From Planctomycetota bacterium (GTDB lineage Bacteria > Planctomycetota > SZUA-567 > H5-PLA8): 64,000 nucleotides of DNA. Location of the stretch: contig DATGGK010000269.1 in NCBI GenBank assembly GCA_035308565.1, forward strand, positions 23,656 through 87,655, in the 5' to 3' direction. Shown here in pieces: positions 4,379 to 50,649 of the stretch (positions within the stretch are counted from its first letter, which is position 1; every line of letters starts with the position of its first letter). The position numbers and the translations under genes were made by a program. A model generated the notes under the pieces. That model did not search any database and was not told where the DNA came from. It saw only the letters and a program-made list of their open reading frames with translations.

Positions 4379-4398
4379 TCAGATTTCCCCTATAGAAA

Positions 4399-14712: not shown

Positions 14713-15454
14713 AGCAGCGTCCGCCAAACCCACCCGGATGGAAAAACTCGATCGGCGGTAAAAAACGGATCCGTGGCGCACCAGAAGCACGCGGTGCCCA
14801 TGCACCAGAATATGTTCGTCCACCAGTTGCTGCAGCGTCAGCTCCACTGGAACAAATGCGCTGTGCTCGCTCATCGCCTGCGCCACTTTGTATCCGGCCA
14901 GAAGACCGCGGAATTCCGCTGCCCGCACTTCCGCCGTCGCCGCGCTTCCCAGAAACCAGCCGATGAACGCAATCCACAATCCGTTGCCCAGATTGTCGGA
15001 GAAGACATTCAGCGCCCCCAGAAAAATGAAACCAAAGCCGAAGAACCGACTCTTCTCAAAATAGCCAATTTGACCCGGCGCACGACATTCTCCGTGCATT
15101 TCGACATCATCCAGTTGACCACAGATTGTATGGTAAGAACCACAAGTTGACGACCAGCAGTCCACCGATGGCGAAGAATAGGTAGCTGCGCGCGTCGGCG
15201 TGCCAATTGCGTTCGAGGATCGTCGGCACCAGGGTCACAAGCACCGAAAACGCGGCTTGTGCCGCCAATCCAATGAACGCGCCGATAAGGATGCCGAGAT
15301 CCGGTCTGAGGCAGCGCCAAAAATACAGCACCAGTTTTAGACTTAGTTTGGGCGGCGGCGCCTCTGGCTGATTGTTGTCGTGCACGAGAATTACGCCTCT
15401 TAGAGGAGTCGATGGGAATTGAATGCGACGAGCCGTAGAGAGAGCGTATTTCAC
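14608..15454 (-). pseudogene. Remnant of an ABC exporter transmembrane domain, split over two frames
   Basis: 15107-15454: LVLYFWRCLRPDLGILIGAFIGLAAQAAFSVLVTLVPTILERNWHADARSYLFFAIGGLLVVNLWF looks like the TM1-TM2 region of ABC exporters. The frame changes near 15150 and the ORF ends at 14608 with no ATPase domain. It overlaps the start region of the LTXXQ gene. Confidence 0.3.
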
Positions 15455-15468
15455 GCCCAGCTATTCGC

Positions 15469-15514
15469 CATAGGGTTAAACCCTATAGTGTCCCCACAGT
15501 TGCCCGGATATTCT
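15469..15514 (+). promoter_or_regulatory. Promoter-like motif, instance 1: palindrome CATAGGGTTAAACCCTATAGTG plus a -10-like GATATTCT 16 nt downstream, upstream of pgm
   Basis: Member of a five-copy family, all in the same orientation upstream of plus-strand genes; see findings. Confidence 0.45.
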
Positions 15515-15553
15515 TCGAATTCTTAACGCGCGAATACCCGGACGGAGGAAATT

Positions 15554-17212
15554 ATGAACATAAGCCCCCTTGCAGGCAAGCCTGCAACGCCAGCAATGCT
15601 GGTCGATGTGCCCCGGCTGATCACCGCGTATTACACGAAGACTCCCGATCCCTCGGAGCCTTCGCAACGGGTGGCGTTTGGCACCTCCGGGCATCGTGGT
15701 TCGGCGTTCGAGCGATCTTTCAATGAAAATCACATCCTCGCTATTACACAGGCGATCTGTTTTTATCGAAAGCAGCAGGGCCTCAATGGACCGCTGTTTC
15801 TTGGGGCCGACACTCATGCACTATCGACACCAGCTTGCGCAACCGCGCTTGAGGTGCTCGCGGCAAATGAAGTCGAGGTGATGATCTCTGACGGCGACGA
15901 ATACACGCCAACCCCGGCTATTTCTCATGCAATCCTAAGTTACAATCGCGGCAGAAAGACCGGACTCGCCGACGGTATCGTCATCACGCCCTCGCACAAT
16001 CCGCCGCAGGATGGCGGCTTTAAATATAACTCGAGCAACGGCGGTCCCGCCGACACGGTGGTCACGGGCTGGATCGAAAAGAAGGCCAATGAGCTTCTTC
16101 GAGCCGGCCTTGCCGATGTGAAGCGCATTTCACTGGAGAGTGCGATCCACGCTGGCACGACGTATAGGCACAACTACCTGAGCGCTTACGTTGCCGATCT
16201 CGGCAACGTGGTTGACATGGACATCATCCGCGGCGCGAAGCTCAGCATGGGTGTCGATCCGCTTGGCGGCGCGGGCGTCCATTATTGGGGACGCATCACT
16301 GAGCGCTATGGTTTGAATCTTAACGTCGTCAACGACGCGGTCGATCCTACGTTTCGATTTATGACCGTCGATTGGGATGGCCAGATACGGATGGATCCTT
16401 CTTCGCCGTATGCGATGCAGCGCTTGATTGAAATGAAGGATCGCTTTGATCTTTCCTTCGCTTGCGATACGGACCATGACCGGCACGGCATCGTAACCAT
16501 AAGCTCAGGTTTGCTGCCGCCCAACCATTACCTTTCCGTCGCGATCCATTATCTTTTCCAGAATCGGCCGAAATGGCACAAGGAGATGGCCGTCGGCAAA
16601 ACGGTGGTGAGCAGCCAGATGATCGATCGCGTCGCCGCGAAACTTGGCCGGAAGCTCTTCGAGGTGCCGGTTGGTTTCAAGTGGTTCGTTGATGGCTTGC
16701 TCGACGGTTCGCTTGGTTTTGGCGGCGAAGAGAGCGCGGGCGCCGCGTTCGCTCGTCTGGATGGCAGTGTCTGGACGACGGACAAGGACGGCATTATCCC
16801 CTGCTTGCTGGCGGCGGAGATCACCGCGCGGCTGGGCCGCGATCCCGGTGAAATTTACCGCGAACTCACGCGCGAATTTGGCGAACCGGTCTACGATCGC
16901 GTTGAAGCGCCAGCTACGCCGAAGCAGAAGGAATTGTTGGCTAAACTCTCACCGCAGCAAGTTAAATCCACCGACCTGGCGGGCGAAAAAATCCGAAGTG
17001 TCCTTATCCAAGCGCCGGGCAATGGCGCGTCCATCGGCGGATTGAAAGTGGCGGCTGAGAGCGGATGGTTTGCGGCGCGTCCGTCAGGGACCGAGGAAAT
17101 ATACAAGATCTATGCGGAGAGCTTCCGCGGCGCGGATCATCTGCGCCACATTCTGGAGGAAGCCCAGACCATCGTCAGCGATGCTTTGGCCGGCAGCGCC
17201 CGAGCACGATAG
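15554..17212 (+). CDS. pgm: Phosphoglucomutase, alpha-D-glucose phosphate-specific
   Basis: GTSGHRGSAFERSFNENHILAITQAIC, the active-site loop TPSHNPPQDGGFKYN, and GGEESAGAAF. 552 aa, typical of E. coli Pgm-type enzymes. Confidence 0.9.
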   Translation: MNISPLAGKPATPAMLVDVPRLITAYYTKTPDPSEPSQRVAFGTSGHRGSAFERSFNENHILAITQAICFYRKQQGLNGPLFLGADTHALSTPACATALEVLAANEVEVMISDGDEYTPTPAISHAILSYNRGRKTGLADGIVITPSHNPPQDGGFKYNSSNGGPADTVVTGWIEKKANELLRAGLADVKRISLESAIHAGTTYRHNYLSAYVADLGNVVDMDIIRGAKLSMGVDPLGGAGVHYWGRITERYGLNLNVVNDAVDPTFRFMTVDWDGQIRMDPSSPYAMQRLIEMKDRFDLSFACDTDHDRHGIVTISSGLLPPNHYLSVAIHYLFQNRPKWHKEMAVGKTVVSSQMIDRVAAKLGRKLFEVPVGFKWFVDGLLDGSLGFGGEESAGAAFARLDGSVWTTDKDGIIPCLLAAEITARLGRDPGEIYRELTREFGEPVYDRVEAPATPKQKELLAKLSPQQVKSTDLAGEKIRSVLIQAPGNGASIGGLKVAAESGWFAARPSGTEEIYKIYAESFRGADHLRHILEEAQTIVSDALAGSARAR

Positions 17213-17428
17213 AGATCGCGCGTCGAAGCCTTGATCCCTTGAGCACTGATTAGTCATACCGCTGTGTAACGATGGAATGAACTCCACCGCCGTTGGTGCC
17301 GCCAATGCCGCGACCGCCGAACGCATCCACGATCGATCCATGTGAACGCAAATTCCCAGGGTCAAAACCGAAGTACTGTCGCGCATGAAACTCAAACTAC
17401 CGGTCGATGCCCGCGGCTTGAGTAGACG

Positions 17429-18520
17429 CTATTTGATCTGTGTGATGACCAGATGCGCGGACACAGGTCGTGTGCCGCCGGCGATGGGTGTGATCGTCAG
17501 CGCCGTCGAATTCCCCGCGGGATTTCGAATCGTCAGAACCGAATTGACGACGGTAGTGCTGGCCAGGCACGTGCCGACAATCTGACAGGTGCCGGTGGCT
17601 CGTCCAACCACTGTATAAGCCAGTTCGGTCGCGCCCGTGCTGCCGTCGAGCCCCACGACAAGCTGGCCCGGCTCGGTCACGCTGACCTGGAAGTTCACCT
17701 GATACGTCCCGATCGCCGGCAACACAAATTGAGTGGCACTGGAGCGGGAGATGTTGCTGATGGGTCCAGTCTGGGGGAACGCAACCGCGGTGCCGACTCC
17801 CACGGTTGTTGAATTGTCGCCCGGCATGAGCGCGTAAAAGTCGGCAAATGTGCTGAGGACACCGGGTATGTTGCCGCTGCCGTCGCGCTTGACGATGGTG
17901 TTGGGCGTATTGTTGGTCGTGGCCGCATTGGCCAGATTCGCGCCGCTGGCGATGTTCTCTGCCGTCACGCCGCCCACAGTCGAGACAACTGTCGCCGCTT
18001 GCGTGCCGGTAATATCTCCCGCGAGCGAACCGGTGAAACTCGTTGCCGAACCGCTGACGTTGCCCGTCAAATTTCCCGTGATGGTTCCGGTGAAAGTCTT
18101 GTTGCCGGCGATATTGCTTTGATTGGTGGTGAGATCGACGAAATTCTGCGTCGAGGAGCCAGTGCCGCCATTGCCGATGCCAAGGATCAGATTCCAAACC
18201 GCGCCGCCGTTGCCGTCGGATTGCAGCACCGCGCCGCTGGAACTCGGGACGCTGCTTAGCGCCGTCCCCAGCACGCTTGCCCATGCGGACTTGCCCGCAC
18301 CGTCTGCGATCAGCGCCTGGCCCGCCTTGGCCACCACCGGAGGCGTCTTCAAGACAACGCTGTTAATTTTCGCGTCAGACGGTGCAGGAAGCGGTTTAAC
18401 CTTGCGCGCACCGACATCCGCATCTTGCGCGGGATTTGAAGTTGATTCTTCAGCACCCCTGGACACACCCATGCCAATACTGAAAACGAAAACGAGCAGA
18501 GCAGAAAAACGCACTGCCAC
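17429..18520 (-). CDS. Secreted Gly/Thr/Asn-rich repeat protein with a C-terminal C1q/TNF-like (BclA C-terminal domain-like) beta-sandwich; resembles a tail-fibre or collagen-like surface protein
   Basis: Probable GTG start at 18520 with a signal peptide. Central repeats GNKTFTGTITGNLTGNVSGSATSFTGSLAGDITG. C-terminal YQVNFQVSV...TGTCQIVGTC... resembles the BclA/C1q globular-domain pattern. Confidence 0.55.
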   Translation of the reverse strand: MAVRFSALLVFVFSIGMGVSRGAEESTSNPAQDADVGARKVKPLPAPSDAKINSVVLKTPPVVAKAGQALIADGAGKSAWASVLGTALSSVPSSSGAVLQSDGNGGAVWNLILGIGNGGTGSSTQNFVDLTTNQSNIAGNKTFTGTITGNLTGNVSGSATSFTGSLAGDITGTQAATVVSTVGGVTAENIASGANLANAATTNNTPNTIVKRDGSGNIPGVLSTFADFYALMPGDNSTTVGVGTAVAFPQTGPISNISRSSATQFVLPAIGTYQVNFQVSVTEPGQLVVGLDGSTGATELAYTVVGRATGTCQIVGTCLASTTVVNSVLTIRNPAGNSTALTITPIAGGTRPVSAHLVITQIK

Positions 18521-18641
18521 CTCCCGATCTAATTGGTTTCAAAAAAACGCGATTTGCGTCAACGCTAACGGCGAGCGCAGGTGTTGCACAGCTATTTTTG
18601 CAAAAAAGATTGCTTGATCATTCGGCGCGTGTTTCACAAAG

Positions 18642-18685
18642 GAGGGTTTCGCCCTATAGAGATGCGTCCGGTTGTGTCGTACAGT
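18642..18685 (+). promoter_or_regulatory. Promoter-like motif, instance 2: GAGGGTTTCGCCCTATAGAGATG plus CGTACAGT 16 nt downstream
   Basis: Same family as instance 1; upstream of the 18727 small ORF. Confidence 0.45.
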
Positions 18686-18726
18686 TTAGTCGGAAGCCGA
18701 TGCCTGGCTTCTGAAAGGCGCAAAAA

Positions 18727-18924
18727 ATGAACTGGTTACCGGCAAAAGTTGCAGTCCTCGAAAAGCTGGAAAAGTGCCTTCAGGGAGACTTGCGCGAGCA
18801 AATGCTGCGCGAAGAACTCTATAGATCGCTCTGTGCCTGGATACGAACTGAACCGCTCTTGGCGGTTTCTAATCGAGGCCTAGCTCTCATCGCTCCAGTG
18901 GCCAGTGCCAAATTCTCGGCCTAG
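18727..18924 (+). CDS. Small hypothetical protein (65 aa) downstream of the promoter-like motif
   Basis: ATG start with 30-nt spacing from the putative -10 box. No recognisable family. Confidence 0.35.
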   Translation: MNWLPAKVAVLEKLEKCLQGDLREQMLREELYRSLCAWIRTEPLLAVSNRGLALIAPVASAKFSA

Positions 18925-18959
18925 AAGTGTACCGGCAGTGCCAGCTATGGCACCGCAGT

Positions 18960-19511
18960 TCAATCCGAGACCCATCCCTCTGAAAGATGGCTCGACGGAA
19001 AAAATGAGCCGTTGAATGCGAATAGGGTTTCGACGGCTTGGCCTTCCCTCAAAATCCGCTGGCCTTCCGAAAGCCGGTTGTGCGTGCCGTCTTTCAGCAC
19101 AATCGAACCATCCGCCGAAATCCGCGATCCATTGTCCAAGGTGACGTCCACGGTCACCAAGGTAGGCGTGCGATCGCGCATCACGTACACTTTGCCGTCT
19201 TCGAGGCAATAACCGTCGAAGTCATCCGTTCCGGCATCGGCGACAATGTACTCGCCGTCCATGTCGATCCAGCGATTCTCCTGGAACCGTTCCCGCTTGC
19301 CGTCCTTGAGGATGACAAATCCATCCGTGGTCAGCCGCGAACCGTTGCGCAGCGTCACTTCCGCCGTCACGGGACTTTCCTTGCCATCCTTCACCATCAC
19401 GACTTTTCCGCCCTTAAACGAATAGCCGTCCTTTTGCGTACCTTCCGCCGCGTACATCGTCAACGACAGCAGTGCAAAATTCAACGCCAACAAACCGACA
19501 TTGTTACGCAT
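18960..19511 (-). CDS. Secreted protein with an internal tandem duplication (two copies of a roughly 50-aa beta-rich module)
   Basis: Signal peptide LLALNFALLSLTMYAAEG. The repeats VMVKDGKESPVTAEVTLRNGSRLTTDGFVILKDGKRERF and VMRDRTPTLVTVDVTLDNGSRISADGSIVLKDGTHNRL. Confidence 0.5.
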   Translation of the reverse strand: MRNNVGLLALNFALLSLTMYAAEGTQKDGYSFKGGKVVMVKDGKESPVTAEVTLRNGSRLTTDGFVILKDGKRERFQENRWIDMDGEYIVADAGTDDFDGYCLEDGKVYVMRDRTPTLVTVDVTLDNGSRISADGSIVLKDGTHNRLSEGQRILREGQAVETLFAFNGSFFPSSHLSEGWVSD

Positions 19512-19679
19512 GATTCAACTCCTCCAAATGTGACAAATAACAAACCTGGTAAAATTGCGGACACACCGCGCTTGAAAATCACTGAAGGTCATATACCGCG
19601 ACGGGCGCTTGTTTATACTCTGATATGAGGTAATGCTTGCACTAAGCCAATTGCAAAAAATGGAATGCAAAATTAACGA

Positions 19680-19723
19680 GGGTTTCACCCCATAGATATG
19701 AGACCGCTCCTCGGGTATATTGT
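19680..19723 (+). promoter_or_regulatory. Promoter-like motif, instance 3: GAGGGTTTCACCCCATAGATATG plus GGTATATT 16 nt downstream
   Basis: Same family; upstream of the acidic small protein gene. Confidence 0.45.
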
Positions 19724-19846
19724 GTTAAAGATCGACAGTCGAAAAACAATTGCACGATAGTATGCGCGAACAAGAGATCGCTTTTGAATCAAAAGCTTCA
19801 ACATCGTCTGGAAGACTGCCAACCGTTGGATAAATGGGGGAACACG

Positions 19847-20173
19847 ATGCATAAGACTAAAGAAAACCTGGCAAAGCCTTCGAAGAGTCACGATCAGAAT
19901 ATTCGGGACGCCTACGAAACGGCGAATGAGGAGGATTACGAGGCCATCGGCGGCGAAACATCCACCGAAGGCGTCGGGCGTGGTTACGATGCCGAAGGAC
20001 CGGACGCCAGCCCCACCGAAAAGGCAGAAAGCACCGCCGACGGCCCAATAAGCGGCGAACTTGCCGATTCGCCTTCAGAATTGCCGGCCAAAAGGAACCG
20101 CGCGCAAAAGGGAGTTCAACGCGCGGACACCAAAAGCAATCACGCAGCGGTGAACAATACAAAATCGATTTAG
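19847..20173 (+). CDS. Small acidic hydrophilic protein, probably intrinsically disordered (stress-protein-like)
   Basis: ATG at 19847 preceded by GGGGGAA; the track ORF frame begins at a TTG at 19784. Asp/Glu/Gly/Ala-rich sequence. Confidence 0.4.
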   Translation: MHKTKENLAKPSKSHDQNIRDAYETANEEDYEAIGGETSTEGVGRGYDAEGPDASPTEKAESTADGPISGELADSPSELPAKRNRAQKGVQRADTKSNHAAVNNTKSI

Positions 20174-20258
20174 CACGTCGAAGGATCCTCTCTCATTTTG
20201 AGAGTGGCTGCGGAGTAATGGGGGCATTTTCATTGGATTGGGGCGAGTGGTACTCCGC

Positions 20259-20951
20259 TCACCGTGGTTGTCCCTCATTCTTTGCGCCCTCATTTTTTCT
20301 TTTTCCACGACACAATACTATGGGTGGTTTTCGATTCTTAGTTGGTAAGGTTTTCTTAATGGGAGGCAGACGACGGCAACGGTTGCCCGGCGGCTTGGAT
20401 GGAATGCTCTGCGGCGCCTCGATTGGATATGTGATTTTGGCGCCTCGGACTTTGGCGAAGGGAGTAAGCATATGAACTTTGAATTGGGTTGCACTCATGA
20501 TGTCCCCGCTGTGGATTCCGCGGACCAGCAGGGCATCGGCGATGAGCGAACGGTGGCAGTGCCACGGCACCGCCTCAGCACACATCAAAACGATTCGCTC
20601 CCGCTTCGCCAACTGGATCAACGCATTGAGACTCTGCTCAAATTCCGGCGTTTGCATGTAATCCGCATATCGTCGAAACGAAGCATTGCGCCATCCCAAG
20701 TTGAGTGACTCGGGCCTCGCATGACGAAGTCCGCCCAGTCCCGGCATGTGAATGTAACGTATGCCGGCCTTCTTCAATGAATGTGGCAGCGAATCTTTGT
20801 TGAATTGCGGGTTATGCCGGGAGCGCGGCACGGTCCGCACATCCACCACGCAAGTTGCACCGCGTGCCTGGATCAGTTGGATAAATTCCTGAAGCGTGCG
20901 CGTAGAGTGGCCAATCGTCAGCACGGCGTGCGACGGTTTTTCATTGAGCAT
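20259..20951 (-). CDS. DUF488-family protein with an unusual basic, Pro-rich C-terminal extension
   Basis: TIGHSTRTLQEFIQLIQARGATCVVDVRTVPRSR...IRYIHMPGLGG...LMCAEAVPWHCHRSLIADALL matches the DUF488 pattern recalled from Pfam (conserved CxE...CHR). It is 230 aa; family members are typically 120-190 aa. Confidence 0.65.
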   Translation of the reverse strand: MLNEKPSHAVLTIGHSTRTLQEFIQLIQARGATCVVDVRTVPRSRHNPQFNKDSLPHSLKKAGIRYIHMPGLGGLRHARPESLNLGWRNASFRRYADYMQTPEFEQSLNALIQLAKRERIVLMCAEAVPWHCHRSLIADALLVRGIHSGDIMSATQFKVHMLTPFAKVRGAKITYPIEAPQSIPSKPPGNRCRRLPPIKKTLPTKNRKPPIVLCRGKRKNEGAKNEGQPR

Positions 20952-21025
20952 TGTTGTCCTCTCATGCGGTTCCGCATGAACTCAAACTACACCGACTGTC
21001 GTTCCGTATTCAAAACTGCCCGTGT

Positions 21026-21069
21026 GCGGGTTTTACCCCATAGCCGCCGCCGGAATTTCCGTTACACCA
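21026..21069 (+). promoter_or_regulatory. Promoter-like motif, instance 4: GCGGGTTTTACCCCATAGCC plus TTACACCA 16 nt downstream, upstream of the glucan synthase
   Basis: The most divergent copy. It lies in the divergent region between the DUF488 gene and the glucan synthase. Confidence 0.35.
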
Positions 21070-21094
21070 AAGATGCGTTAAACGGCAACGTTGA

Positions 21095-24000
21095 ATGCAA
21101 ATCCAGTTTTCGATTTTGAAAACGTATAACGCGCATCGCAGGGAGTCCACGGCCATTCTTAACCACTTGCCCAATTTCGTCAAAAACGTTCGCCTTCGAT
21201 GGAATGGCCGGCTTCCCGAAGGTGGTGCGGCGCATGGTAGCGCGGAAGCCGAACCGCCTTTCCGCGCAGAATTGTTCAGCCCCGAACAACTGCAGAGCCA
21301 TGCGGAGGCGCTCGCAGCCATGCATCGCATCTCCACGGCGAGGCATTCGGAACGATTGCTGCCGCGGCTGAAAGAAAACGAGCGCATCATCGACCGGACG
21401 TACAACGTTGTCACGGAAATGGTTCACGACGGCGTACACGTGCCGCCGGCCGGCGAATGGCTGCTTGATAATTATTACATTATTAAAGAACATATTTCAC
21501 TCGCGCGCGAGCATCTGCCGAAGCGCTTCAGTAAGGAATTGCCGCTGCTGGACAAAGGCCCGGCGGAGGGCTTTCCGCGCATCTATCACCTCGCGACGGA
21601 ATTAATTACCCACGTCGATGGGCGCGTGGATTTGGACAATCTCAGCAGTTTCATTGCCAGCTACCAGCGTAAAGCGGAGCTGACCATCGGCGAGCTTTGG
21701 GCGATTCCCATCGTGCTGCGCCTGACACTGATTGAAAACCTGCGCCGCGTCGCGCAGCGCCTGTCCGCCGCCCGCAACGACTGTGCACTCGCTGAAAAAT
21801 GGGCGAAGCAACTTGTCCAAATGGCTGAGAAGGATCCGCAAAACTTGGTGCTCGTTCTGGCCGACATGGTCAATGCCAAACTGCCGTCGTCCAGCGCGTT
21901 TGTGGCCGAGTTGTGCCGTCGCTTGCAGGGGCAAAGTCCCACGTTGGCCCTGGCGCTCAGTTGGTTCGAGCAGCGGCTTGCGGAGCAGGGAATTTCGTCG
22001 GAGCAGTTGATTCTTTCGGAAGGGCCGGTGCAGGCGCTGGATCAGGTTTCGATCGGCAATACGATCTCCAGCCTGCGCCTGCTGAGCGCGATCGATTGGC
22101 GTGAATTTGTGGAACGCCACAGCGTGATGGAGGCGATTCTGCGCGCGGAGCCGGCCGGGATCTATCCACGCATGGATTTCGAAACGCGCGACGCGTACCG
22201 CCATACGGTCGAACGCATCGCGAAGAAATTCCGCCGGAGCGAAAGCGACGTCGCCCGCCGAATCGTTGAAATCGCCCGTGACGCTGGAGCCCATGTTGCA
22301 GATGTCCCGCCTGCAAGTTCAGAGTCGCGCAGGCGGGACGCCTGCGCCACGGCGTCAAAGCAGGCGCATATTGGCTATTACCTGGTTGACAAAGGTTTGA
22401 AAAAGGTCGCGAAGATATTCGGAGGGAGCATTTCCTCCACGCATCCGGCTGCGTGCACACGGATGGGTCTGCGCCTGTGCGGCTATCTGCTGGGACTGCT
22501 CGCGTTCACAGCGCTCCTGACCGCGCCATTCGTGCTGGCGTTGTTGTACTCCGGGATATCGGTGGTTTTGACCTGCGTGCTTTCGGTTTTGTTTGCGGTC
22601 TGCGCGTCACAAGCGGCGCTGCACATCCTCAACAGCTTGGTTGTCCGCATCGTTTCGCCGCAGCGCTTGCCGCAGATGGATTTCTCGGCGGGAATTCCGG
22701 ACGGTTGCCGCACCATGGTCGTCATACCCACGATGTTGACAGGCAGCAAAGTCGTTGACAACCTGATCGAAGGCATTGAAATTCGTTATCTTGCCAATCG
22801 AGACGACAACATCTTCTTCGCGCTGTTGACCGATTTCTCGGACGCCGCTCAGGAAACCGAACCCGGAGATGCGGCGCTTGTCACGAATCTGCAGGACAAG
22901 ATCACGGCTCTGAATATAAAATACGCCTCCGATCGTCCCACCATTTTTTTTCTCTATCACCGCCCGCGCCGTTGGAACGAGCGCGAAGGCGTCTGGATGG
23001 GAACGGAACGCAAACGCGGCAAGCTATGCGAGTTCAACCGGGCCTTGCGCAGTTGCACGCCGAGTGAATTCGGCTGCGTTTCCCAAGGGGTGGTGACCGT
23101 CGGCGATCAAACGCTGCTGCCGACCTTCAAGTATGTCATCACGCTGGATACCGACACGCAGCTTCCTCGAAACGCCGCCCGGCGCATGGCGGCGGCGATG
23201 GCGCATCCGCTGAACCGTCCCGTGTACGATGCGGCGCGAGGCCGCATCGTGGAGGGATACGGGCTGCTGCAGCCGCGCGTCGCGCTGAACCTGAGCACGT
23301 CGAGACGCACTTTCTTCGCGCGCCTCAATGCGCCGGACGCGGGCGTCGATCCCTATACGCGTATCGCCTCCGACGTGTACCAGGATTTGTTCGGCGAAGG
23401 ATCTTTTGTCGGCAAGGGGATTTACGATATCGACGCGTTCGACTACGCGTGTGGCAAGCACTTCCCCGAAAACCGCATTCTCAGCCACGATTTGATCGAA
23501 GGCTGCTACGCGCGCTCTGGGCTGCTAACGGACGCCGAGCTATACGAAGATTTTCCGGCGCGAATCAACGCCGACATCCAGCGCCGGCATCGGTGGATGC
23601 GGGGAGATTGGCAGATCGCCGGCTGGCTGCTGCCCTGGCCGCCGCATTCGAAGGGAAACAGCGCGCGCAACGCGCTCTCCGCGCTTTCGCGCTGGAAGAT
23701 CCTGGACAACTTGCGCCGAAGCGTGGTGGCACCGTGCGCCGTGATTCTGTTGGCCGCAACCTGGCTCGCCTTCCCGAAGATCGCATGGCAGGTCTCAGTG
23801 GGCGTGGTGGCGCTGACACTGCTTCCGGCGTTGTTGATGTTCGCGCAGAGCGTATTAAGCAGGGGTCGCGGGGTGCCGCGGATCCTGCACCTTCATTCGG
23901 TGATTAGAGATTTGCTGCACAATCTATGTCTAGCGTTGATGTCGCTGGTGTTCCTTGCATCCGATGCGATCTTGAGCGCCGATGCGATCGTCCGCACCGG

Positions 24001-27000
24001 CTGGCGTTTGTTGATGTCGCGGCGCAAGTTGCTCGAATGGACCACCGCCAGCGACTCGGAACGAAAGGCCGCAACCACGCTGCTGGGTTATGTGCGCGAA
24101 ATGAGCGCGACTGTGCTGTTAACGCTTCTGCTGGCGTTCGCCGTGATTCAATTCTCATCCGCGGCCATTTCCGCGGCGGTGCCGCTGCTGGCGTTGTGGC
24201 TGTTGTCGCCGCTCGTGGCGTACGTCATCAGCATCCCGCGTTCAACGCATCCAGAAACTGTCGGCGCGGACGACCGGCTTTTCCTGCGCGAAATTGCGCG
24301 CCGAACGTGGCGCTTCTTCTCCGATTTCGTCACCCCCGAAGAGCACTGGCTGCCGCCCGACAATTTCCAACAAACGCCCAAGCCCTTGATTGCCTCCAGA
24401 ACGTCGCCAACCAACATGGGCGCCGCGCTGTTGTCCACGCTGGCGGCATTCGATTTTGGTTATCTTTCGGCAAAGACGCTGGTGTTCCGCTTGAACGCGA
24501 CCCTGCAGAGCATGGCTTCGCTCCCGCGCTACCAGGGACACTTCTTCAATTGGTACAATACGCGCACCTGCCAGCCGTTGATTCCCAATTACGTGTCGTC
24601 CGTGGACAGCGGCAATTTGCTGAGCTACCTGCTGGTGTTGCGCGGCGGATTGAGCGAGCTTCACAGCGCGCGTCTGCTGCCTGACGCGGCGCATGATCTG
24701 GCGGGACTTGCCGATACGGTCCGGTGCCTGCAAGGCGCCGTGCGGGACGCGCTCGCTGAGAACAAGCCGTCCGCTTCTGAAACAGGCCGGCGGGACGCCG
24801 GCGGTACAGCTCATGTCGGTGCCGCGCAGGCATTGCTGCTGCTTGCCGCGGAGACCGCGCCAACTCTTCGAGCCCGGGTTAAAATGCTCGCGCGCTTCAT
24901 CGACGCCGCGCGTCTTTTCCATTCGACAGTTTCCAACGCATACCCGGACACCGAGGTTGTCCACTGGGCGGACGCGGTTGTGGCGCACGCGGAAGACTTG
25001 CATGAGAACGTGTTGACATACGCGCCGTGGCTGGCGCGTGACGGCGTGCCCGCATCGCTTGGAGCGGATTTGCGTTTTCAACGCTTCGAAGCGGCTTGCA
25101 GCCTGAAGTCAGCAGCCGAACTCGATTCACAGTTGGCTCCCTTTTTTGAAGAACGGCTCACGCGCCAGGGCATTGTCCCGGCCGAGCAGACAGAACTCAC
25201 TCAGTGGCGCGAAGAAATCCACGCCGGCGCGGAGAACGCGCGGCAAACATTGGCCGATGTCGAGGCGCTGAGCGATCTCTGCACTCATCTTTCCGAGATG
25301 AATTTCGATTTCCTGTTCGACCGCACCCGCCTGCTGCTGGCGATCGGCTATAACGCGTCCGATCAGCGCCTGGATGGCAGTTTCTACGACCTGCTCGCGT
25401 CCGAAGCGCGCGTAGCAAGTTACGTAGGCATTGCCCTGGGCAAACTGCCTCCGAAGCACTGGTTCATGCTGGGACGCAAACTGACCGCCAGCGGCGGCGA
25501 CCCGGCGCTGCTGTCGTGGAGCGGCTCGATGTTCGAGTACCTGATGCCCGCGCTGATCATGCCCAGCTACGAAGGCAGCTTGCTCGACCAGACCAAGAAG
25601 GCCGTCGTCAAATGGCAGATCGACTACGCCGCAAAAAACGGCATCCCGTGGGGCATCTCGGAGTCCGGATTCAGCGCGCGCGACATCGAGCAGAATTACC
25701 AATACCGCGCGTTTGGCGTGCCCGGGCTCGGCTTTAAACGCGGCCTCTCCGAGGACCTGGTGATCGCACCCTATGCGAGCGTCATGGCGCTCATGGTTGC
25801 GCCCCGGCAGGCGTGCGCCAACCTGCGCGAACTGGCGGGCCTTCAGGCGCTGAATGCGTACGGTTTTTTCGAAGCGATCGACTACACGGCTTCGCGGCTT
25901 CGAAAAGGGCAGAAGCTCTCGATCGTTCGTTCGTTCATGGCCCACCATCAGGGCATGAGCATGCTGGCGCTGACGCACTTCCTGTTGGACAAGCCCATGC
26001 AGCGGCGCTTTTCCTTGGACCCGCGCCTGAGAGCGACGGACTTGCTGTTGCAGGAGCGCGTGCCCCGCACCGCTGTGCCGATCTACCCGCATTCGGCCGA
26101 GGAAGAGCATCTCGAAACGAAAGCCGAACCCAAAGGCGCCCGAATTCGCGAGTTCAAAACGCCCGACACGGCGTCGCCGGAAGTTCAACTTTTATCCAAC
26201 GGCCGCTATCACGTCATGCTGACCAGTGCCGGCGGTGGATATAGCCGCTGCAAGGACTTGGCCTTGACGCGCTGGAGTGAGGACGGCACCTGCGATCCCT
26301 GGGGGCAATTCTGTTACATCCGCGATGTGGAATCCGGACGGGTTTGGTCGGCAACCCATCAACCTACTTTGGATGGTGCCGGAACCGGCGGCGATTTCCT
26401 GGTTCATTTCGGGCATTCCAGCGCCGAATTCCGGCGGCAGGAAATGGGCATCACCACGCACTTGGATGTCTGCGTGTCTCCGGAAGACGACGTGGAATTA
26501 CGCCTGCTGAAAGTGGCTAATGCCTCGCGCGTCAAGCGCCGTATTGAAGTCGTCACCTATGCCGAAGTCGTGCTGAATACTTCGGGCGCGGACCAGTCGC
26601 ATCCCGCATTCAGCAACCTCTTCGTACAAACGGAAATCGTCAAAGAGAAAAGCGCGATTCTGTGCACGCGCCGTCCGCGCGGAGAGCATGAGACGCCCGT
26701 CTGGCTCTTCCATCAAGTCACGTTCAAGGGAAATGTGCCCGGCGATGTGTCCTTTGAGACGGACCGCGCGAAATTCATTGGACGCGGCGGGTCTTTGAAG
26801 AATCCGCTGGCGTTGCGGGAAACCCAAGCGCATTCCGGCACGTGCGGATCGGTGCTGGACCCGATTGTCTCGGTTCGGCGCACGATCGAACTTCAGCCCA
26901 TGGAAAGCGTTGAATTGCAGTTGGTCACGGGCGTCGCCGACAGCCGCGCGGCGGCATTGGGACTGGTCGACAAATTTCAGGACTACCGGCTGTGCGAACG

Positions 27001-30000
27001 CGCATTCGAGGTGTCGTGGACGAACAGCAAAGTGGTCTTGAGCCAGTTGAACGCCGACGAATCCGACGCGCAGGTCTTCTGCGAACTGGCCGCGCCGATT
27101 CTCTTCGCGTCGCCGTTCCATCGCGCCGCGCCGGGCGTGCTGGCCCGTAATAAACGCAACCAATCGGGCCTGTGGGGCCAGGGGATTTCCGGCGACTATC
27201 CGATCGTTCTCCTGCGGATCAGCGACGTCGCCAACATCGAACTGGCGCGCGAGGCGTTGAAGGCTCATGCCTTCCTGCGCATGAAGGGCCTGGCCTTCGA
27301 TCTGGTCATCTGGAACGAAGATTCGTCGATGTATCGCCAGTCGCTCCATGATGAGTTGATGGGCGTCGTGATGACGGGTACGGAGGCCGGCATGCTCGAC
27401 AAGCCGGGCGGCATCTTCATTCGCCGCGGCGATCAGATCGCGGAAGAAGACCGCGTGCTGCTGCAAACGCTCGCTCGCGTGACGCTTCAGGAAGGCCGCG
27501 GACGATTGGAGGATCAAATCCAACGCCGTGCGATCGCCGAGTTCAGGCCGCCGAAATTTGTGCCCACGCGCATGGGACTGCTCCATCAGGCTCCGGCGCG
27601 GCCGAACGCCACACCGCGGCCTTTTGCGATCGAAGCCTTGAAATTCTTCAACGGAACCGGCGGCGCCGCAGTGGTGCAGACGTCCCGCTCGCACGATTCT
27701 GGAATTGCAGGCGAGACGCCTGCGCTACGGGACACGTCCGGCGGCGGTTTTTCGAGGGACGGCCGCGAATACATCCTTTTATTGAAGCACGGATACAGCA
27801 CACCGGCTCCGTGGTGTAACGTGATCGCTAATTCATTTTTTGGCACCGTCATCTCCGAAAGCGGCAGCGCGTATTCGTGGGCGGAGAACGCACACGAATA
27901 TCGTTTGACGCCCTGGCACAACGACGCGGTGCTCGACGGGAGCGGTGAATGTTTCTATTTACGCGATGAAGAAACCGGTTACTTCTGGTCGCCCACGCCC
28001 AAGCCGGTGCGCGGCGAAAGCGATTACCGCGTGCGGCACGGCTTCGGCTACAGCATCTTCGAGACGGTCCACAATGGCATTCGATCCGAAATGACCGTGT
28101 TCGTCGTGCCGGACGCGCCGGTGAAGATCGTGCTGCTGAAACTGCGCAACGAATCCGCCGAGCGGCGTGTGATGACGGCCACTGCGTATTGGGAATGGGT
28201 GCTCGGGGAAGGCCGGCCGAAAAACGCGCAGCATGTAGTTACGGAGCCCGACCGCACGGGCGCAATCTACGCGCGAAATGCATACAATACCGATTTTCAA
28301 AGCCGGGTTAGTTTCTGCACCGTCAGCGACCGGAACCGTTCGGTCACCTGCGACCGGGCGGAATTCATCGGCCGAAACGGGAGGCTTGAAAATCCGGCTG
28401 CCATGCGCAGTACGCGCTTGTCCGGACGCGTCGGGGCAGGTTTGGATCCGTGTACCGTCTTTCAAGTAAAAGTTGACTTCCATCCGGGCGAGGAACGCTG
28501 GGTTGCCTTTGCGCTGGGTGCCGGAAAGAATGCCTCCGAAGCGCAAGCTCTCGCCCAACGCTACCAATCCGTGGACACGGCCCAGCGCGCGTTGGAACGA
28601 GTGCGCCAGAACTGGCGGCGCACTCTAGGCGCGATTCAGATCGAGACGCCCGATCCGGCATTCGATACGCTCGCCAACGGATGGCTGATCTACCAAGTTT
28701 TGTCGTGCCGCGTTTGCGCGCGCAGCGGATTTTATCAGTCGGGCGGAGCCTACGGCTTCCGCGATCAATTGCAGGACGTGATGGCGTTGACTTTTGCCGC
28801 GCCCGAATTGACCCGCGAGCACGTGCTGCGTTGCGCCGCGCGCCAATTCGAAGACGGCGACGTCCAGCATTGGTGGCATCCGCCTGTCGGACGCGGCGTT
28901 CGCACCAAGTTCTCCGACGATTATCTCTGGCTGCCTTACGCCGTCAGCCGGTACGTGCTGACCACGGGGGACACCGGCGTGCTCAGCGAGAGCGCGTTCT
29001 TTTCCGTAGGCCGCGCGTTGAAGCCCGAAGAGGAAGCCTACTACGACGTGCCTCATCCATCGGATAAATCCTCGACTCTTTACGAGCACTGCAAGCGTGC
29101 GCTGACCCATGCGCTGCAACGCATGGGCCAGCACGGCCTGCCGCTGATGGGTTGCGGCGACTGGAACGACGGCATGAATCTGGTTGGAATCAAAGGCCAA
29201 GGCGAAAGCGTGTGGCTGGCCTTTTTCCTCCACGACGTCCTGACTCAATTCGGAGCCGTGGCGCAACGCGTGAGTGACGCATCGATGCAGCAGATGTGCG
29301 AAGAAGGCGTAAAACAGTTGCGTACAGCTATCGGCTTGCACGCGTGGGACGGCAACTGGTATCTGCGGGCATTCTTCGACAATGGCCAGCCCCTGGGTTC
29401 CGCGTCCAACCCGGAATGCCAGATCGACTCCCTGCCGCAAAGCTGGGCGGTGCTCTCCAAGGCCGGCGATCCCGATCGCTGCCGGCACGCCATGAATGCC
29501 GTCTTTGAGCGGCTGGTTCACAAAGACCAGCGCTTGATTCAGCTCTTCACTCCTCCGTTCGACAAGTCGGATTTGAACCCGGGCTATATCAAAGCGTATG
29601 TGCCCGGCGTCCGCGAAAACGGAGGACAATACACGCACGCCGCGATTTGGGCCGTGATGGCCTTTGCGGAGCTTGGTGACGTCGAACGCGCGTGGGATCT
29701 GTTGCGAATGCTTAATCCCATTAATCATGGGTCAACGGCTGAGGATATCGACATCTACAAGGTTGAGCCTTACGTCATGGCGGCGGACGTGTATGCTTTG
29801 CCGCCGCATACGGGGCGCGGAGGCTGGACATGGTACACCGGTTCCGCCGGCTGGATGTATCGTTTGATGATCGAGACGCTGTTGGGCATTCGACGCGAAG
29901 TCAACGTGCTGAAGGTTCAGCCGCGCGTGCCCAAAAGCTGGAAGACTTTCTCGATTCAATATCGCTTCCGCGAAACGTTGTATCGCATCAAAGTCGAGCG

Positions 30001-30175
30001 AACTTTGGATACTCCGGGCGTCGTTGTCGATGGCGTAGGACAGAAAGAGCGCGATGGGTTTACGTTACAAAACGACGGTCGCGAGCATAACGTGGTCGTT
30101 AAGTTTTCGGATGAGAAACCTGTGGTTGTGGAAGCGGTTGCTCAGGATGCGCAGTTGCAAATGGCGCACGCATAA
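21095..30175 (+). CDS. ndvB: Cyclic beta-1,2-glucan synthase (NdvB/ChvB/Cgs family): GT84 glycosyltransferase core with TM segments plus a C-terminal GH94 glucan-phosphorylase-like domain
   Basis: 3026-aa single ORF. The N-terminal region (RAELFSPEQLQSHAEALAAMH), the multi-TM GT domain, and the long C-terminal (alpha/alpha)6 GH94-like region with the conserved GCGDWNDGMN motif all match what is remembered of Brucella/Sinorhizobium Cgs/NdvB. Confidence 0.88.
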   Translation: MQIQFSILKTYNAHRRESTAILNHLPNFVKNVRLRWNGRLPEGGAAHGSAEAEPPFRAELFSPEQLQSHAEALAAMHRISTARHSERLLPRLKENERIIDRTYNVVTEMVHDGVHVPPAGEWLLDNYYIIKEHISLAREHLPKRFSKELPLLDKGPAEGFPRIYHLATELITHVDGRVDLDNLSSFIASYQRKAELTIGELWAIPIVLRLTLIENLRRVAQRLSAARNDCALAEKWAKQLVQMAEKDPQNLVLVLADMVNAKLPSSSAFVAELCRRLQGQSPTLALALSWFEQRLAEQGISSEQLILSEGPVQALDQVSIGNTISSLRLLSAIDWREFVERHSVMEAILRAEPAGIYPRMDFETRDAYRHTVERIAKKFRRSESDVARRIVEIARDAGAHVADVPPASSESRRRDACATASKQAHIGYYLVDKGLKKVAKIFGGSISSTHPAACTRMGLRLCGYLLGLLAFTALLTAPFVLALLYSGISVVLTCVLSVLFAVCASQAALHILNSLVVRIVSPQRLPQMDFSAGIPDGCRTMVVIPTMLTGSKVVDNLIEGIEIRYLANRDDNIFFALLTDFSDAAQETEPGDAALVTNLQDKITALNIKYASDRPTIFFLYHRPRRWNEREGVWMGTERKRGKLCEFNRALRSCTPSEFGCVSQGVVTVGDQTLLPTFKYVITLDTDTQLPRNAARRMAAAMAHPLNRPVYDAARGRIVEGYGLLQPRVALNLSTSRRTFFARLNAPDAGVDPYTRIASDVYQDLFGEGSFVGKGIYDIDAFDYACGKHFPENRILSHDLIEGCYARSGLLTDAELYEDFPARINADIQRRHRWMRGDWQIAGWLLPWPPHSKGNSARNALSALSRWKILDNLRRSVVAPCAVILLAATWLAFPKIAWQVSVGVVALTLLPALLMFAQSVLSRGRGVPRILHLHSVIRDLLHNLCLALMSLVFLASDAILSADAIVRTGWRLLMSRRKLLEWTTASDSERKAATTLLGYVREMSATVLLTLLLAFAVIQFSSAAISAAVPLLALWLLSPLVAYVISIPRSTHPETVGADDRLFLREIARRTWRFFSDFVTPEEHWLPPDNFQQTPKPLIASRTSPTNMGAALLSTLAAFDFGYLSAKTLVFRLNATLQSMASLPRYQGHFFNWYNTRTCQPLIPNYVSSVDSGNLLSYLLVLRGGLSELHSARLLPDAAHDLAGLADTVRCLQGAVRDALAENKPSASETGRRDAGGTAHVGAAQALLLLAAETAPTLRARVKMLARFIDAARLFHSTVSNAYPDTEVVHWADAVVAHAEDLHENVLTYAPWLARDGVPASLGADLRFQRFEAACSLKSAAELDSQLAPFFEERLTRQGIVPAEQTELTQWREEIHAGAENARQTLADVEALSDLCTHLSEMNFDFLFDRTRLLLAIGYNASDQRLDGSFYDLLASEARVASYVGIALGKLPPKHWFMLGRKLTASGGDPALLSWSGSMFEYLMPALIMPSYEGSLLDQTKKAVVKWQIDYAAKNGIPWGISESGFSARDIEQNYQYRAFGVPGLGFKRGLSEDLVIAPYASVMALMVAPRQACANLRELAGLQALNAYGFFEAIDYTASRLRKGQKLSIVRSFMAHHQGMSMLALTHFLLDKPMQRRFSLDPRLRATDLLLQERVPRTAVPIYPHSAEEEHLETKAEPKGARIREFKTPDTASPEVQLLSNGRYHVMLTSAGGGYSRCKDLALTRWSEDGTCDPWGQFCYIRDVESGRVWSATHQPTLDGAGTGGDFLVHFGHSSAEFRRQEMGITTHLDVCVSPEDDVELRLLKVANASRVKRRIEVVTYAEVVLNTSGADQSHPAFSNLFVQTEIVKEKSAILCTRRPRGEHETPVWLFHQVTFKGNVPGDVSFETDRAKFIGRGGSLKNPLALRETQAHSGTCGSVLDPIVSVRRTIELQPMESVELQLVTGVADSRAAALGLVDKFQDYRLCERAFEVSWTNSKVVLSQLNADESDAQVFCELAAPILFASPFHRAAPGVLARNKRNQSGLWGQGISGDYPIVLLRISDVANIELAREALKAHAFLRMKGLAFDLVIWNEDSSMYRQSLHDELMGVVMTGTEAGMLDKPGGIFIRRGDQIAEEDRVLLQTLARVTLQEGRGRLEDQIQRRAIAEFRPPKFVPTRMGLLHQAPARPNATPRPFAIEALKFFNGTGGAAVVQTSRSHDSGIAGETPALRDTSGGGFSRDGREYILLLKHGYSTPAPWCNVIANSFFGTVISESGSAYSWAENAHEYRLTPWHNDAVLDGSGECFYLRDEETGYFWSPTPKPVRGESDYRVRHGFGYSIFETVHNGIRSEMTVFVVPDAPVKIVLLKLRNESAERRVMTATAYWEWVLGEGRPKNAQHVVTEPDRTGAIYARNAYNTDFQSRVSFCTVSDRNRSVTCDRAEFIGRNGRLENPAAMRSTRLSGRVGAGLDPCTVFQVKVDFHPGEERWVAFALGAGKNASEAQALAQRYQSVDTAQRALERVRQNWRRTLGAIQIETPDPAFDTLANGWLIYQVLSCRVCARSGFYQSGGAYGFRDQLQDVMALTFAAPELTREHVLRCAARQFEDGDVQHWWHPPVGRGVRTKFSDDYLWLPYAVSRYVLTTGDTGVLSESAFFSVGRALKPEEEAYYDVPHPSDKSSTLYEHCKRALTHALQRMGQHGLPLMGCGDWNDGMNLVGIKGQGESVWLAFFLHDVLTQFGAVAQRVSDASMQQMCEEGVKQLRTAIGLHAWDGNWYLRAFFDNGQPLGSASNPECQIDSLPQSWAVLSKAGDPDRCRHAMNAVFERLVHKDQRLIQLFTPPFDKSDLNPGYIKAYVPGVRENGGQYTHAAIWAVMAFAELGDVERAWDLLRMLNPINHGSTAEDIDIYKVEPYVMAADVYALPPHTGRGGWTWYTGSAGWMYRLMIETLLGIRREVNVLKVQPRVPKSWKTFSIQYRFRETLYRIKVERTLDTPGVVVDGVGQKERDGFTLQNDGREHNVVVKFSDEKPVVVEAVAQDAQLQMAHA

Positions 30176-30187
30176 AGAGCGATATCA

Positions 30188-30233
30188 TATAGGGTTTCAC
30201 CCCATAGATATGCCTCTGGAAACATCGTACAGT
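30188..30233 (+). promoter_or_regulatory. Promoter-like motif, instance 5: ATAGGGTTTCACCCCATAGATATG plus CGTACAGT 16 nt downstream
   Basis: Begins 13 nt after the glucan synthase stop; upstream of the small-protein/DUF3309 gene pair. Confidence 0.45.
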
Positions 30234-30458
30234 GCCTATGTCAGAAGCATTTGATGAAAATAAGATTTAGTTTAACGCGGGAACGGAATCTCGATGGAGG
30301 CTGTCCCTCTGAAGTAAAATTCGAAGTCACATCAATCATCCCCGAAAGTTCTCTGCCCTCTTCCGCAATTAACAACCCCTGTTGAGGCTCCATTTCCCGC
30401 ATTTTTGATTTCTGTTTGCAAAGCGCATCTCAAACTCATTTGAACAAAGGAAACGCTC

Positions 30459-30626
30459 ATGATGAAGAACATTCCCCTTAAGCGTAATCTACCCATGCTG
30501 AAGGAAGCGGAGCGAAAAGAGCGCGAGGATAACGCGGCGAAAAGACTCTCTTCGAACCTCAACGAGGCCGTGGAAAAGAGCATCGCAAAGAAGTCCAAGG
30601 ACGAAGTACAGTCCAAGCCCAGTTAA
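30459..30626 (+). CDS. Small hydrophilic protein (55 aa); below the 60-aa ORF-track cutoff
   Basis: ATG at 30459 with AAGGA upstream. MMKNIPLKRNLPMLKEAERKEREDNAAKRLSSNLNEAVEKSIAKKSKDEVQSKPS. Confidence 0.35.
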   Translation: MMKNIPLKRNLPMLKEAERKEREDNAAKRLSSNLNEAVEKSIAKKSKDEVQSKPS

Positions 30627-30698: not shown

Positions 30699-30854
30699 AT
30701 GCTAGGTACAATTTTGATTGTCGTGCTCATTCTCGCGCTGCTCGGCGCCATTCCCACATGGGGACACAGCAGAGAATGGGGTTATGGTCCCAGCGGCGGG
30801 CTGGGTCTCGTTCTGCTGATCGTCGTAATACTGATGTTCATGGGCAGAATTTAG
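30699..30854 (+). CDS. DUF3309-family small membrane protein (51 aa); below the ORF-track cutoff
   Basis: GGAGG lies 8 nt before the ATG. MLGTILIVVLILALLGAIPTWGHSREWGYGPSGGLGLVLLIVVILMFMGRI matches the DUF3309 consensus (PTWxxSRxWGYxPSGGLG). Confidence 0.7.
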   Translation: MLGTILIVVLILALLGAIPTWGHSREWGYGPSGGLGLVLLIVVILMFMGRI

Positions 30855-48539: not shown

Positions 48540-48680
48540 CGTATCGCAGGCGTCTCGCCTGCCCATGTTTCGCGAAGCGAAACGCCGCCGTTCAGCCCCG
48601 CAGGGGCGCAACATCTTAGCCCAGGGCGTAAGCCCTGGGTTCCGACCGCCGAAACTGGTCCAAGCCCTGAAAGGGCGGCA
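48540..48680. repeat. Cluster of five consecutive perfect short hairpins in the intergenic region
   Basis: GCAGGCG-tct-CGCCTGC; GTTTCGC-gaa-GCGAAAC; GCCCC-gca-GGGGC; CCCAGGGC-gtaa-GCCCTGGG; GCCC-tgaaa-GGGC. Confidence 0.5.
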
Positions 48681-50399: not shown

Positions 50400-50649
50400 T
50401 CGCCCCCCCTTTTTCCGCGGATGCTTCGCTGAAGCCTCGCGCGGTTTTAATTTGTCCTATAGGCCCTATGGCCCGCATTCTGTATCGGCACAATGCTCCA
50501 CAAGAGTTTAAAAGAATAAGCGTGGACTATGGCCGCCCGGTGCGATATAAATACCGGCGCCCTCGGACACGCTTGTTGGAGGGAGGGTGAACTATTTTAG
50601 CTTCGGGAACGTGATTTTGTTTTCAATTCGTAGCGAAGAGACGAGTCGA

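Follow-up and report, generated by a model that had tools for sequence, protein, structure and literature searches.

In Mycobacterium tuberculosis, the dormancy regulon is controlled by DosR (DevR), a NarL-type regulator that works with HisKA_3-type kinases, has an autoregulated operon and binds GC-rich palindromes of about 20 bp (of the GGGAC..GTCCC type). DosR sites lie just upstream of the -35 region and overlap it. NarL and NarP, with their 7-2-7 sites, and the LuxR-type regulators that bind lux boxes also place a dimer with a GerE-type helix-turn-helix on an inverted repeat, and activate from a site abutting the -35 region; at lux boxes this is class II activation near -42.5, and the NarL half-site is TACYYMT. 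In Firmicutes, the autoregulated VraSR and LiaSR systems employ a HisKA_3 kinase and have an envelope-stress flavour. We analysed a 64,000-nucleotide (nt) stretch of DNA from a Planctomycetota bacterium, called the window throughout and taken at its full length, which carries five copies of a palindromic promoter motif. With a probability of about 0.65, we read this motif as the site of a NarL/FixJ-type response regulator that would activate a stress regulon conserved across the Planctomycetes-Verrucomicrobia-Chlamydiae (PVC) superphylum.

The candidate PVC system shares with DosR the type of regulator and kinase, the GC-rich palindrome, a probably autoregulated operon and a regulon of the stress or dormancy kind. 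It differs from DosR in the sequence of the half-sites, in a kinase that carries RsbU_N where the DosR kinases have GAF domains, in its occurrence in the PVC superphylum, and in a regulon content of BON, OsmC and cyclic glucan genes. In its proposed mode of action it comes closest to DosR/DevR and LuxR-type class II activators, whose palindromes overlap the -35 region and whose operons are autoregulated. The ACCC-rich half-sites in PVC genomes are like those of NarL, and a GerE-type dimer would again activate from an inverted repeat abutting the -35 region. Unlike those of the 7-2-7 site, however, the PVC half-sites face the other way and are separated by a spacer of 3-4 nt, and the right half is fused to a -35-like TAG at an invariant distance, which sets it apart from NarL and LuxR-type sites. 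VraSR and LiaSR are the closest systems by sequence: the closest solved relatives of the PVC regulator are VraR (E 1.8e-56), NarL, DesR and DevR. VraS and LiaS are membrane kinases, whereas the PVC kinase is soluble and has an RsbU_N domain, and the binding motif is also different. In NCBIfam the regulator scores below the cut-off of the NarL equivalog and the kinase far below that of LiaS, and no equivalog cut-off is reached by either protein. In Proteobacteria, for example in Vibrio vulnificus, RsbU_N histidine kinases lie next to rsbRST stressosome genes, and like the PVC kinase they begin with a domain of the RsbU type to which an RsbT-like partner could dock (PMC12143880, citing PMC9237108). 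The PVC kinase operons differ from such stressosome-linked systems, in that no STAS, RsbR or RsbS genes are found among their recurrent neighbours and many of them add a short RsbU_N-HisKA_3 protein.

We propose that each copy of the motif would be bound by a dimeric response regulator of the NarL/FixJ family. A soluble histidine kinase with RsbU_N-type, HisKA_3 and ATPase domains would phosphorylate this regulator, which would then bind the inverted repeat and help polymerase carrying a primary-type sigma factor to initiate where the promoter by itself is too weak, by class II activation like that seen with DosR and LuxR-type regulators. In the window, the regulon would couple the supply of glucose-1-phosphate, through phosphoglucomutase (pgm), to the synthesis of cyclic beta-1,2-glucan, and would also drive DUF3309 and small hydrophilic proteins. 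From the sequence comparisons described below we infer that the regulator binds the site and activates rather than represses, as well as the start sites, induction by stress and the occurrence of the regulator in this genome.

Motif copies and promoter architecture

Exact and relaxed searches, together with direct reading, place the 16-nt core GGGTTnnnCCCyATAG five times in the window, always on the + strand (15473-15488, 18644-18659, 19680-19695, 21028-21043 and 30192-30207). An earlier interpretation made from the letters of the window, here called the sequence-only reading, had reported five copies in one orientation, with starts 0-4 nt upstream of these cores, and a perfect palindrome in the first of them; both statements hold, the palindrome being ATAGGGTT-A-AACCCTAT at 15470-15486. 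Shuffled versions of the window gave 0.00 matches to the consensus proposed in that reading, and a relaxed pattern gave 6 strand-hits in the window (copy 1 being counted on both strands) versus 0.18 in shuffles. TAnnnT begins exactly 20 nt past the end of ATAG in four of the five copies. The fixed spacing to a -10 box that had been claimed is borne out for these four, its value of 16 nt depending on the end point assigned to the motif, and does not extend to copy 4, which has TACACC at 19 nt. The sites and their -10 boxes are as follows.

15470-15488 (+): copy 1, palindrome ATAGGGTTAAACCCTAT followed by AG (direct reading and searches)
15509-15514 (+): -10 box TATTCT of copy 1, the pgm promoter; the 20-nt spacing agrees with the PVC-wide profile
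18644-18659 (+): copy 2, GGGTTTCGCCCTATAG (search and direct reading)
18680-18685 (+): -10 box TACAGT of copy 2 (direct reading)
19680-19695 (+): copy 3, GGGTTTCACCCCATAG; a promoter scan gives TAGATA-17-TATATT here
19716-19721 (+): -10 box TATATT of copy 3 (direct reading and promoter scan)
21028-21043 (+): copy 4, GGGTTTTACCCCATAG (relaxed search and direct reading)
21063-21068 (+): weak -10 box TACACC of copy 4, at a spacing of 19 nt (direct reading)
30192-30207 (+): copy 5, GGGTTTCACCCCATAG (search and direct reading)
30228-30233 (+): -10 box TACAGT of copy 5 (direct reading)

Transcription is predicted to start near 15521 for copy 1 and near 30240 for copy 5. Read on the minus strand, copy 1 gives GGGTTTAACCCTATGG, followed after 19 nt by TACGCT; this arrangement precedes two small divergent genes, and the copy may work in both directions.

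Scanning a 596-gigabase (Gb) collection, with one genome per species, for GGGTTTCRCCCYATAG gave at least 119 loci. About half of the loci listed belong to Verrucomicrobiota, Kiritimatiellia, Lentisphaerae, Planctomycetota and Omnitrophota, groups that account for a small fraction of the collection; about 1100 matches to a 16-mer are expected by chance in 596 Gb, and the non-PVC matches among those listed look like chance or unrelated conserved blocks. In 60 PVC sites among the matches listed, conservation is also seen outside the searched core, with gGTA upstream, a weak CGA just downstream, and T36 (29/60), A37 (44/60) and T41 (45/60), the last three corresponding to TAnnnT beginning 20 nt past ATAG. 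The placement of the motif was examined in PVC and regulator loci totalling 828 kb, which contain 170 relaxed-type sites, using a simple gene caller that assigned 82% of the DNA to genes. Intergenic positions account for 81% of these sites versus about 18% of the DNA (p 4e-69). TAnnnT follows at 19-21 nt in 56% of the 170 sites, versus 1.4% of random positions in the same loci, and the spacing is exactly 20 nt in 71 of the 96 sites that have it in this range. The motif is therefore neither as frequent inside genes as between them, nor randomly oriented, nor detached from transcription signals, which are the patterns that the sequence-only reading had named as speaking against its proposal. In addition, many downstream open reading frames (ORFs) begin 0-6 nt from the point 7 nt past the -10 box, which fits leaderless mRNAs and places the likely start of transcription about 7 nt after the box.

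The motif is an inverted repeat, TRGGGT-N3/4-ACCCYA, centred near -43 as counted from the predicted start, and a -10 box at -12 to -7 places the core at about -48 to -33. The TAG at the right edge of the repeat and the 3 nt beyond it (positions 13-18) form a -35-like hexamer 17 bp before the -10 box. This hexamer reads TAGACA, TATACA or TGGACA in kinase-operon promoters and is weak elsewhere, with the consensus TAGCGA. Variant copies from the PVC loci differ at the three central bases (TTC, TAC, TAT, TTT or AAC), with GGGT and ACCCCAT fixed. Perfect 20-bp palindromes occur in kinase-operon promoters (TATGGGGTGTTCACCCCATA in locus L129 and TATGGGGTATTTACCCCATA in L158), tandem copies 23 bp apart are present in L003, where the upstream copy lacks its own -10 box, and copies stand back to back in divergent orientation in L079, L140, L154, L164 and L023. 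Because palindromes can be perfect, the centre is variable, and tandem and back-to-back copies occur, we take the site to be of the dimer type. As we read it, the promoter is an ordinary one of the sigma-70 type whose weak -35 box is abutted by this dimer-type site, in the geometry of a class II activator. A class II activator or palindromic operator overlapping -35 had been listed as an option in the sequence-only reading, and it is the one that the evidence favours.

An operator in this position could also serve repression, with a NarL-type regulator or another dimer blocking access to the -35 region until stress. The palindrome does overlap the -35 region, NarL-family proteins can repress, and TAGACA in the kinase-operon promoters is a fairly good -35 box. 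Nevertheless, we consider a repressor unlikely. Near-invariant spacing to the -10 box (71/96 at exactly 20 nt) is typical of contact between an activator and polymerase, whereas operators are usually placed more freely. Moreover, most promoters of the regulon have a poor -35 box, TAGCGA, and would be weak unaided, and the extra upstream copies in tandem fit cooperative activation.

Several other occurrences were set aside. The sequence-only reading had noted fragments of the motif, of which GTTTCAC at 15448 reads ATTTCAC in the sequence, and the weak one after tRNA-Thr, TTTCCCCTATAG at 4384, has neither a left half nor a -10 box and lies in the terminator region of the tRNA. A quasi-palindrome, CTATAGGCCCTATGG (50457-50471, +), sits upstream of an ABC-type ATPase gene (50551-51435). 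Its halves are fused with no spacer between them, AATGCT lies 20 nt downstream, and the same regulator probably does not bind there. Outside the PVC groups, the 16-mer used for the scan lies within a block of about 100 nt conserved among four Gemmatimonadales metagenome-assembled genomes (MAGs; L006, L017, L069 and L087), which is unrelated to the PVC element and distinct from the RNase P gene found elsewhere in L006. The same 16-mer is also contained in a block common to three Woesearchaeota loci and one Methanosarcinales locus (L014, L042, L043 and L058), likewise unrelated to the PVC element; in L014 it lies about 80 nt from a tRNA gene.

The linked kinase and regulator

A soluble histidine kinase with RsbU_N, HisKA_3 and ATPase domains, and without a membrane segment, is encoded in 12 of about 55 PVC loci (among the matches listed) that were fetched for the motif alone, and its gene often lies directly downstream of a site. 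The kinase gene is followed by that of a receiver-GerE regulator, 58-68% identical between Planctomycetota, Omnitrophota and Verrucomicrobiota; Pfam recognizes Response_reg, GerE, HisKA_3, HATPase_c and RsbU_N in the operon. Reverse selection, in which metagenomes were scanned with the regulator alone, yielded 80 loci (452 kb) containing 46 near-exact sites versus about 0.5 expected by chance, although part of this enrichment may be mere PVC-genome background. The kinase adjoins the regulator in 56 of the 80 loci, and of the 32 that have enough upstream DNA, 14 show a site on the same strand ahead of the operon. These operon sites cluster near -1900 from the start codon of the regulator when the operon encodes a short RsbU_N-HisKA_3 protein, the full kinase and the regulator, and a second cluster near -900 corresponds to a kinase without RsbU_N and the regulator. 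The kinase-regulator operon has the best site, often a perfect palindrome, and for this reason is probably autoregulated. A homolog search shows a very large family, with at least 7978 clusters at E <= 1e-60, all of which have generic names, and organism names too sparse for a map of its distribution.

The identity of the binding protein is addressed by covariation between the recognition helix and the site. The helix (I/V)(S/G)xKTVEKHR is found in the regulator of 70 loci, which contain 142 hits of GGGW-N3/4-ACCCCAT and 0 hits of a variant site. In 14 loci with the helix VSFKTVDKHR, there are 1 standard hit and 8 strand-hits (5 sites) of the variant, CGGGGAnnTCCCCG, in which the palindrome has changed from GGGGT..ACCCC to CGGGGA..TCCCCG in both half-sites together. 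The variant sites keep the same distance to the -10 box and again stand ahead of the kinase operon. Alignment to NarL (1a04) puts the E-to-D replacement at the equivalent of Lys188, a residue that we take to contact bases in NarL-DNA structures, and the I-to-F replacement four residues earlier, both within the recognition helix. Because an altered recognition helix accompanies a symmetrically altered palindrome, these comparisons point to the regulator as the protein that binds the site.

Linkage and a single covariation event could, on the other hand, both come from shared ancestry and regulon membership, if the activator site were bound by a different transcription factor and the kinase-regulator operon were merely a member of the regulon. 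This we regard as quite unlikely. The regulator is the only DNA-binding protein found consistently beside motif copies in the neighbourhood census, and no other DNA-binding family recurs near the motif among the 25 most frequent families in 150 neighbour proteins. The change in both half-sites is accompanied by a change in the recognition helix of the regulator, and the regulator, like the site, is very highly conserved across phyla.

Two further observations concern the surroundings of the operon. A protein of about 260 amino acids (aa) with RsbU_N and HisKA_3 and no ATPase domain precedes the full kinase in L089 (4582-5391), L125, L129, L138, L139, L149, L152 and others, and may cooperate with the kinase or modulate it. 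In the Pfam census of regulator loci among L128-L173, KaiB (3 proteins), KaiC (2) and several PAS-domain kinases are encoded near the operon.

Genes downstream of the motif

Gene calls for the window were taken from public annotation pipelines applied to the same contig, including a record of the Joint Genome Institute (JGI). A copy of the motif stands upstream of every + strand gene between 15.5 and 30.9 kb, and there is none for the interleaved minus-strand genes (361 aa, DUF6799 and DUF488). The association of each copy with a + strand gene, made in the sequence-only reading, is thus reproduced by the pipeline calls, and the pgm, GH94 and DUF3309 domains are confirmed.

14608-15385 (-): two divergent genes on the other side of copy 1, of 92 aa (15385-15107) and 163 aa (15099-14608) (gene calls)
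15554-17212 (+): phosphoglucomutase gene pgm, copy 1; Pfam PGM_PMM I-III, named phosphoglucomutase in a Planctomycetota MAG
18727-18924 (+): gene of 65 aa, copy 2; called as a gene in the JGI record
19847-20173 (+): gene for an acidic hydrophilic protein of 108 aa, copy 3 (gene call)
21095-30175 (+): cyclic beta-1,2-glucan synthase-like gene, 3026 aa, copy 4; GH94 supersandwich, GH94 catalytic and Glycoamylase domains
30459-30626 (+): lysine/glutamate-rich protein of 55 aa, copy 5 (gene call)
30699-30854 (+): DUF3309 membrane peptide, copy 5; DUF3309 confirmed by family search

Family scans gave no match for the 92-aa and 163-aa divergent genes, the 65-aa gene or the 108-aa acidic protein. The divergent pair may be driven by the minus-strand reading of copy 1. 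The leader of about 220 nt that follows the predicted start of copy 5 (30240-30458, +) has no Rfam match and contains no convincing small ORF. Glucose-1-phosphate is converted to UDP-glucose, from which cyclic beta-1,2-glucan is made, and the pairing of pgm with the glucan synthase is biochemically sensible because the product of the former feeds this pathway.

Pfam scans of ORFs downstream of PVC sites, including a set of 212, and reading of their N-termini gave a broader view of the candidate regulon. BON/OsmY-like proteins (7/92), DUF5670 (four cases) and OsmC/Ohr (three) are accompanied by PRC-barrel proteins, Fe/Mn superoxide dismutase, CsbD, DUF3309 and DUF4142. Envelope and lipid families are represented by MlaA/MlaE, FloA and fatty-acid desaturase, and metabolic ones by transaldolase, phosphoketolase, glycosyltransferases and polyketide synthases; signalling proteins are also present. 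The cyclic glucan synthase recurs in L023, where a homolog (48% identity) has the upstream site TGGGGTGTTTACCCCATAG, back to back with the kinase promoter, and in L060 a DUF3309 gene is again found downstream of a motif copy. By its annotations, this set looks like a general or envelope stress regulon. The stress-like or osmotic character suggested for the window genes in the sequence-only reading stands as a resemblance, and is strengthened by the gene content of the other PVC genomes.

General stress responses are directed by sigma factors in many bacteria, among them sigma B, sigma S and EcfG. The regulons of these factors likewise contain OsmC, CsbD, BON/OsmY, superoxide dismutase, PRC-barrel and small hydrophilic proteins and osmoprotectant synthesis, whereas control in PVC bacteria appears to operate through a two-component activator and a primary-type sigma factor rather than a partner-switched alternative sigma factor. 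The sequence-only reading had preferred an extended -35 region read by an alternative sigma factor, of the extracytoplasmic function (ECF) type or group 3, that directs a stress regulon, and the stress-like genes and the fixed orientation of the motif and its distance to the downstream box agree with this. We nevertheless judge an alternative sigma factor very unlikely, and its proposal is not upheld. The motif is an inverted repeat, sometimes perfect, whose halves change symmetrically in one lineage; it can stand back to back with another copy, or in tandem without a -10 box of its own; and its 16-20 conserved bp far exceed the contact made by sigma region 4. Moreover, a separate -35-like TAGACA is present with a 17-bp spacer, and the -10 box, TAnnnT, is of the primary-sigma (group-1) type and not the CGT type of ECF factors. 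What is linked to the motif is a NarL-type two-component system and no sigma gene: Sigma70_r2 is absent from the 25 most frequent families among the 150 neighbour proteins and 212 downstream ORFs, a census in which single cases could be missed, and the r4_2 matches among neighbours accompany the GerE domains of regulators.

Four specific promoter types were also tried and rejected. A sigma-32-like -10 box (CCCCATNT) within the motif has no CTTGAA conserved upstream of it, and the real -10 box lies downstream. A promoter for a phage-type single-subunit polymerase, with TATAG as for T7 or SP6, is ruled out by the palindrome and the conserved downstream TAnnnT. For a sigma B/SigF-type GTTT..GGGTAT promoter, nothing is conserved at the needed spacing, and for an ECF TGAAAC on the opposite strand, no box is conserved upstream of the motif.

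Finally, it is hardly credible that the motif plays no part in initiating transcription and is a dispersed repeat or a small RNA hairpin: GGGT-N3-ACCC can indeed fold as a 4-bp hairpin and there are five copies within 15 kb, but the flanks are unconserved and just 16-20 bp are shared, intergenic and orientation bias is strong with a fixed link to the -10 box, transcription is predicted to start downstream of the site, which is hence outside the transcript, the variants GGGA..ACCC and GGGTTTCGCCC disrupt the stem, and Rfam gives no match at or near any motif copy.

The remainder of the window contains two other features. An Acido-Lenti-1 RNA (RF01687) is matched at 48594-48639 (-) with 59 bits versus a gathering score of 37, in a phylum, Planctomycetota, outside the two in the family name. 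A stretch at 31609-33314 (-) has a lower GC content than the window (45% vs 58%) and encodes an AAA ATPase (32169-33314) similar to candidate anti-phage ATPases (PADLOC HEC-01A, mad3 and AbiL). The 187-aa partner encoded beside this ATPase has no family match, and the two may form a defence gene pair.

Weight of the evidence and meaning for PVC bacteria

Several points weigh against the reading of the motif as a response-regulator site that activates a stress regulon. In the window, the -10 box of copy 4 is poor (TACACC, 1 nt closer), and about 220 nt separate copy 5 from its first ORF. There is no kinase or regulator homolog within the 64-kb window, so that the presence of the regulator in this genome is deduced from the type of motif. 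The PVC sites were partly picked by an exact match to the core, which inflates the apparent conservation there, and the abundance of sites near the regulator may, as noted above, owe something to PVC-genome background. A clear upstream site is seen at just 14 of 32 regulator loci. The variant regulators all belong to a single clade and represent one evolutionary event, so that shared ancestry could explain the covariation, and L136, which has the variant helix VSFKTVDKHR, contains one site of the standard type, the sole exception to the partition between helices and sites. In addition, activation is preferred to repression on the grounds of geometry and weak -35 boxes, and the stress function is argued from annotations.

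With these points taken into account, we still favour a NarL/FixJ-type regulator acting at the motif. A wider reading, to which we give somewhat less than an even chance, is that the general stress response of PVC bacteria depends on a single two-component system, deeply conserved and autoregulated, rather than on an alternative sigma factor. This system would consist of a soluble RsbU_N-type kinase and a NarL-type regulator acting at a 20-bp palindrome at -43, often ahead of leaderless genes, with a recognition code that can be read from the covariation of helix and site. The groups covered by this tentative proposal are Planctomycetota, Verrucomicrobiota, Lentisphaerota, Kiritimatiellota and probably Omnitrophota. 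In the literature searched, the coverage of which is incomplete, we found no paper that contains the sequence or describes such a PVC system.

To our knowledge, gene regulation in PVC bacteria is almost unmapped, and we know of no general stress regulator for Planctomycetes, Verrucomicrobia or related groups, to which Akkermansia of the gut and bacteria abundant in soil and water belong. If our reading is correct, the motif would serve as a sequence mark for the regulon in any PVC genome or metagenome bin. The work also names a candidate regulator and kinase, and predicts which amino acids read which bases. Moreover, the motif would offer a functional handle on small unannotated proteins, such as DUF3309, DUF5670 and the hydrophilic peptides of the window, and would tie the synthesis of cyclic glucan and the supply of its precursor to one switch.

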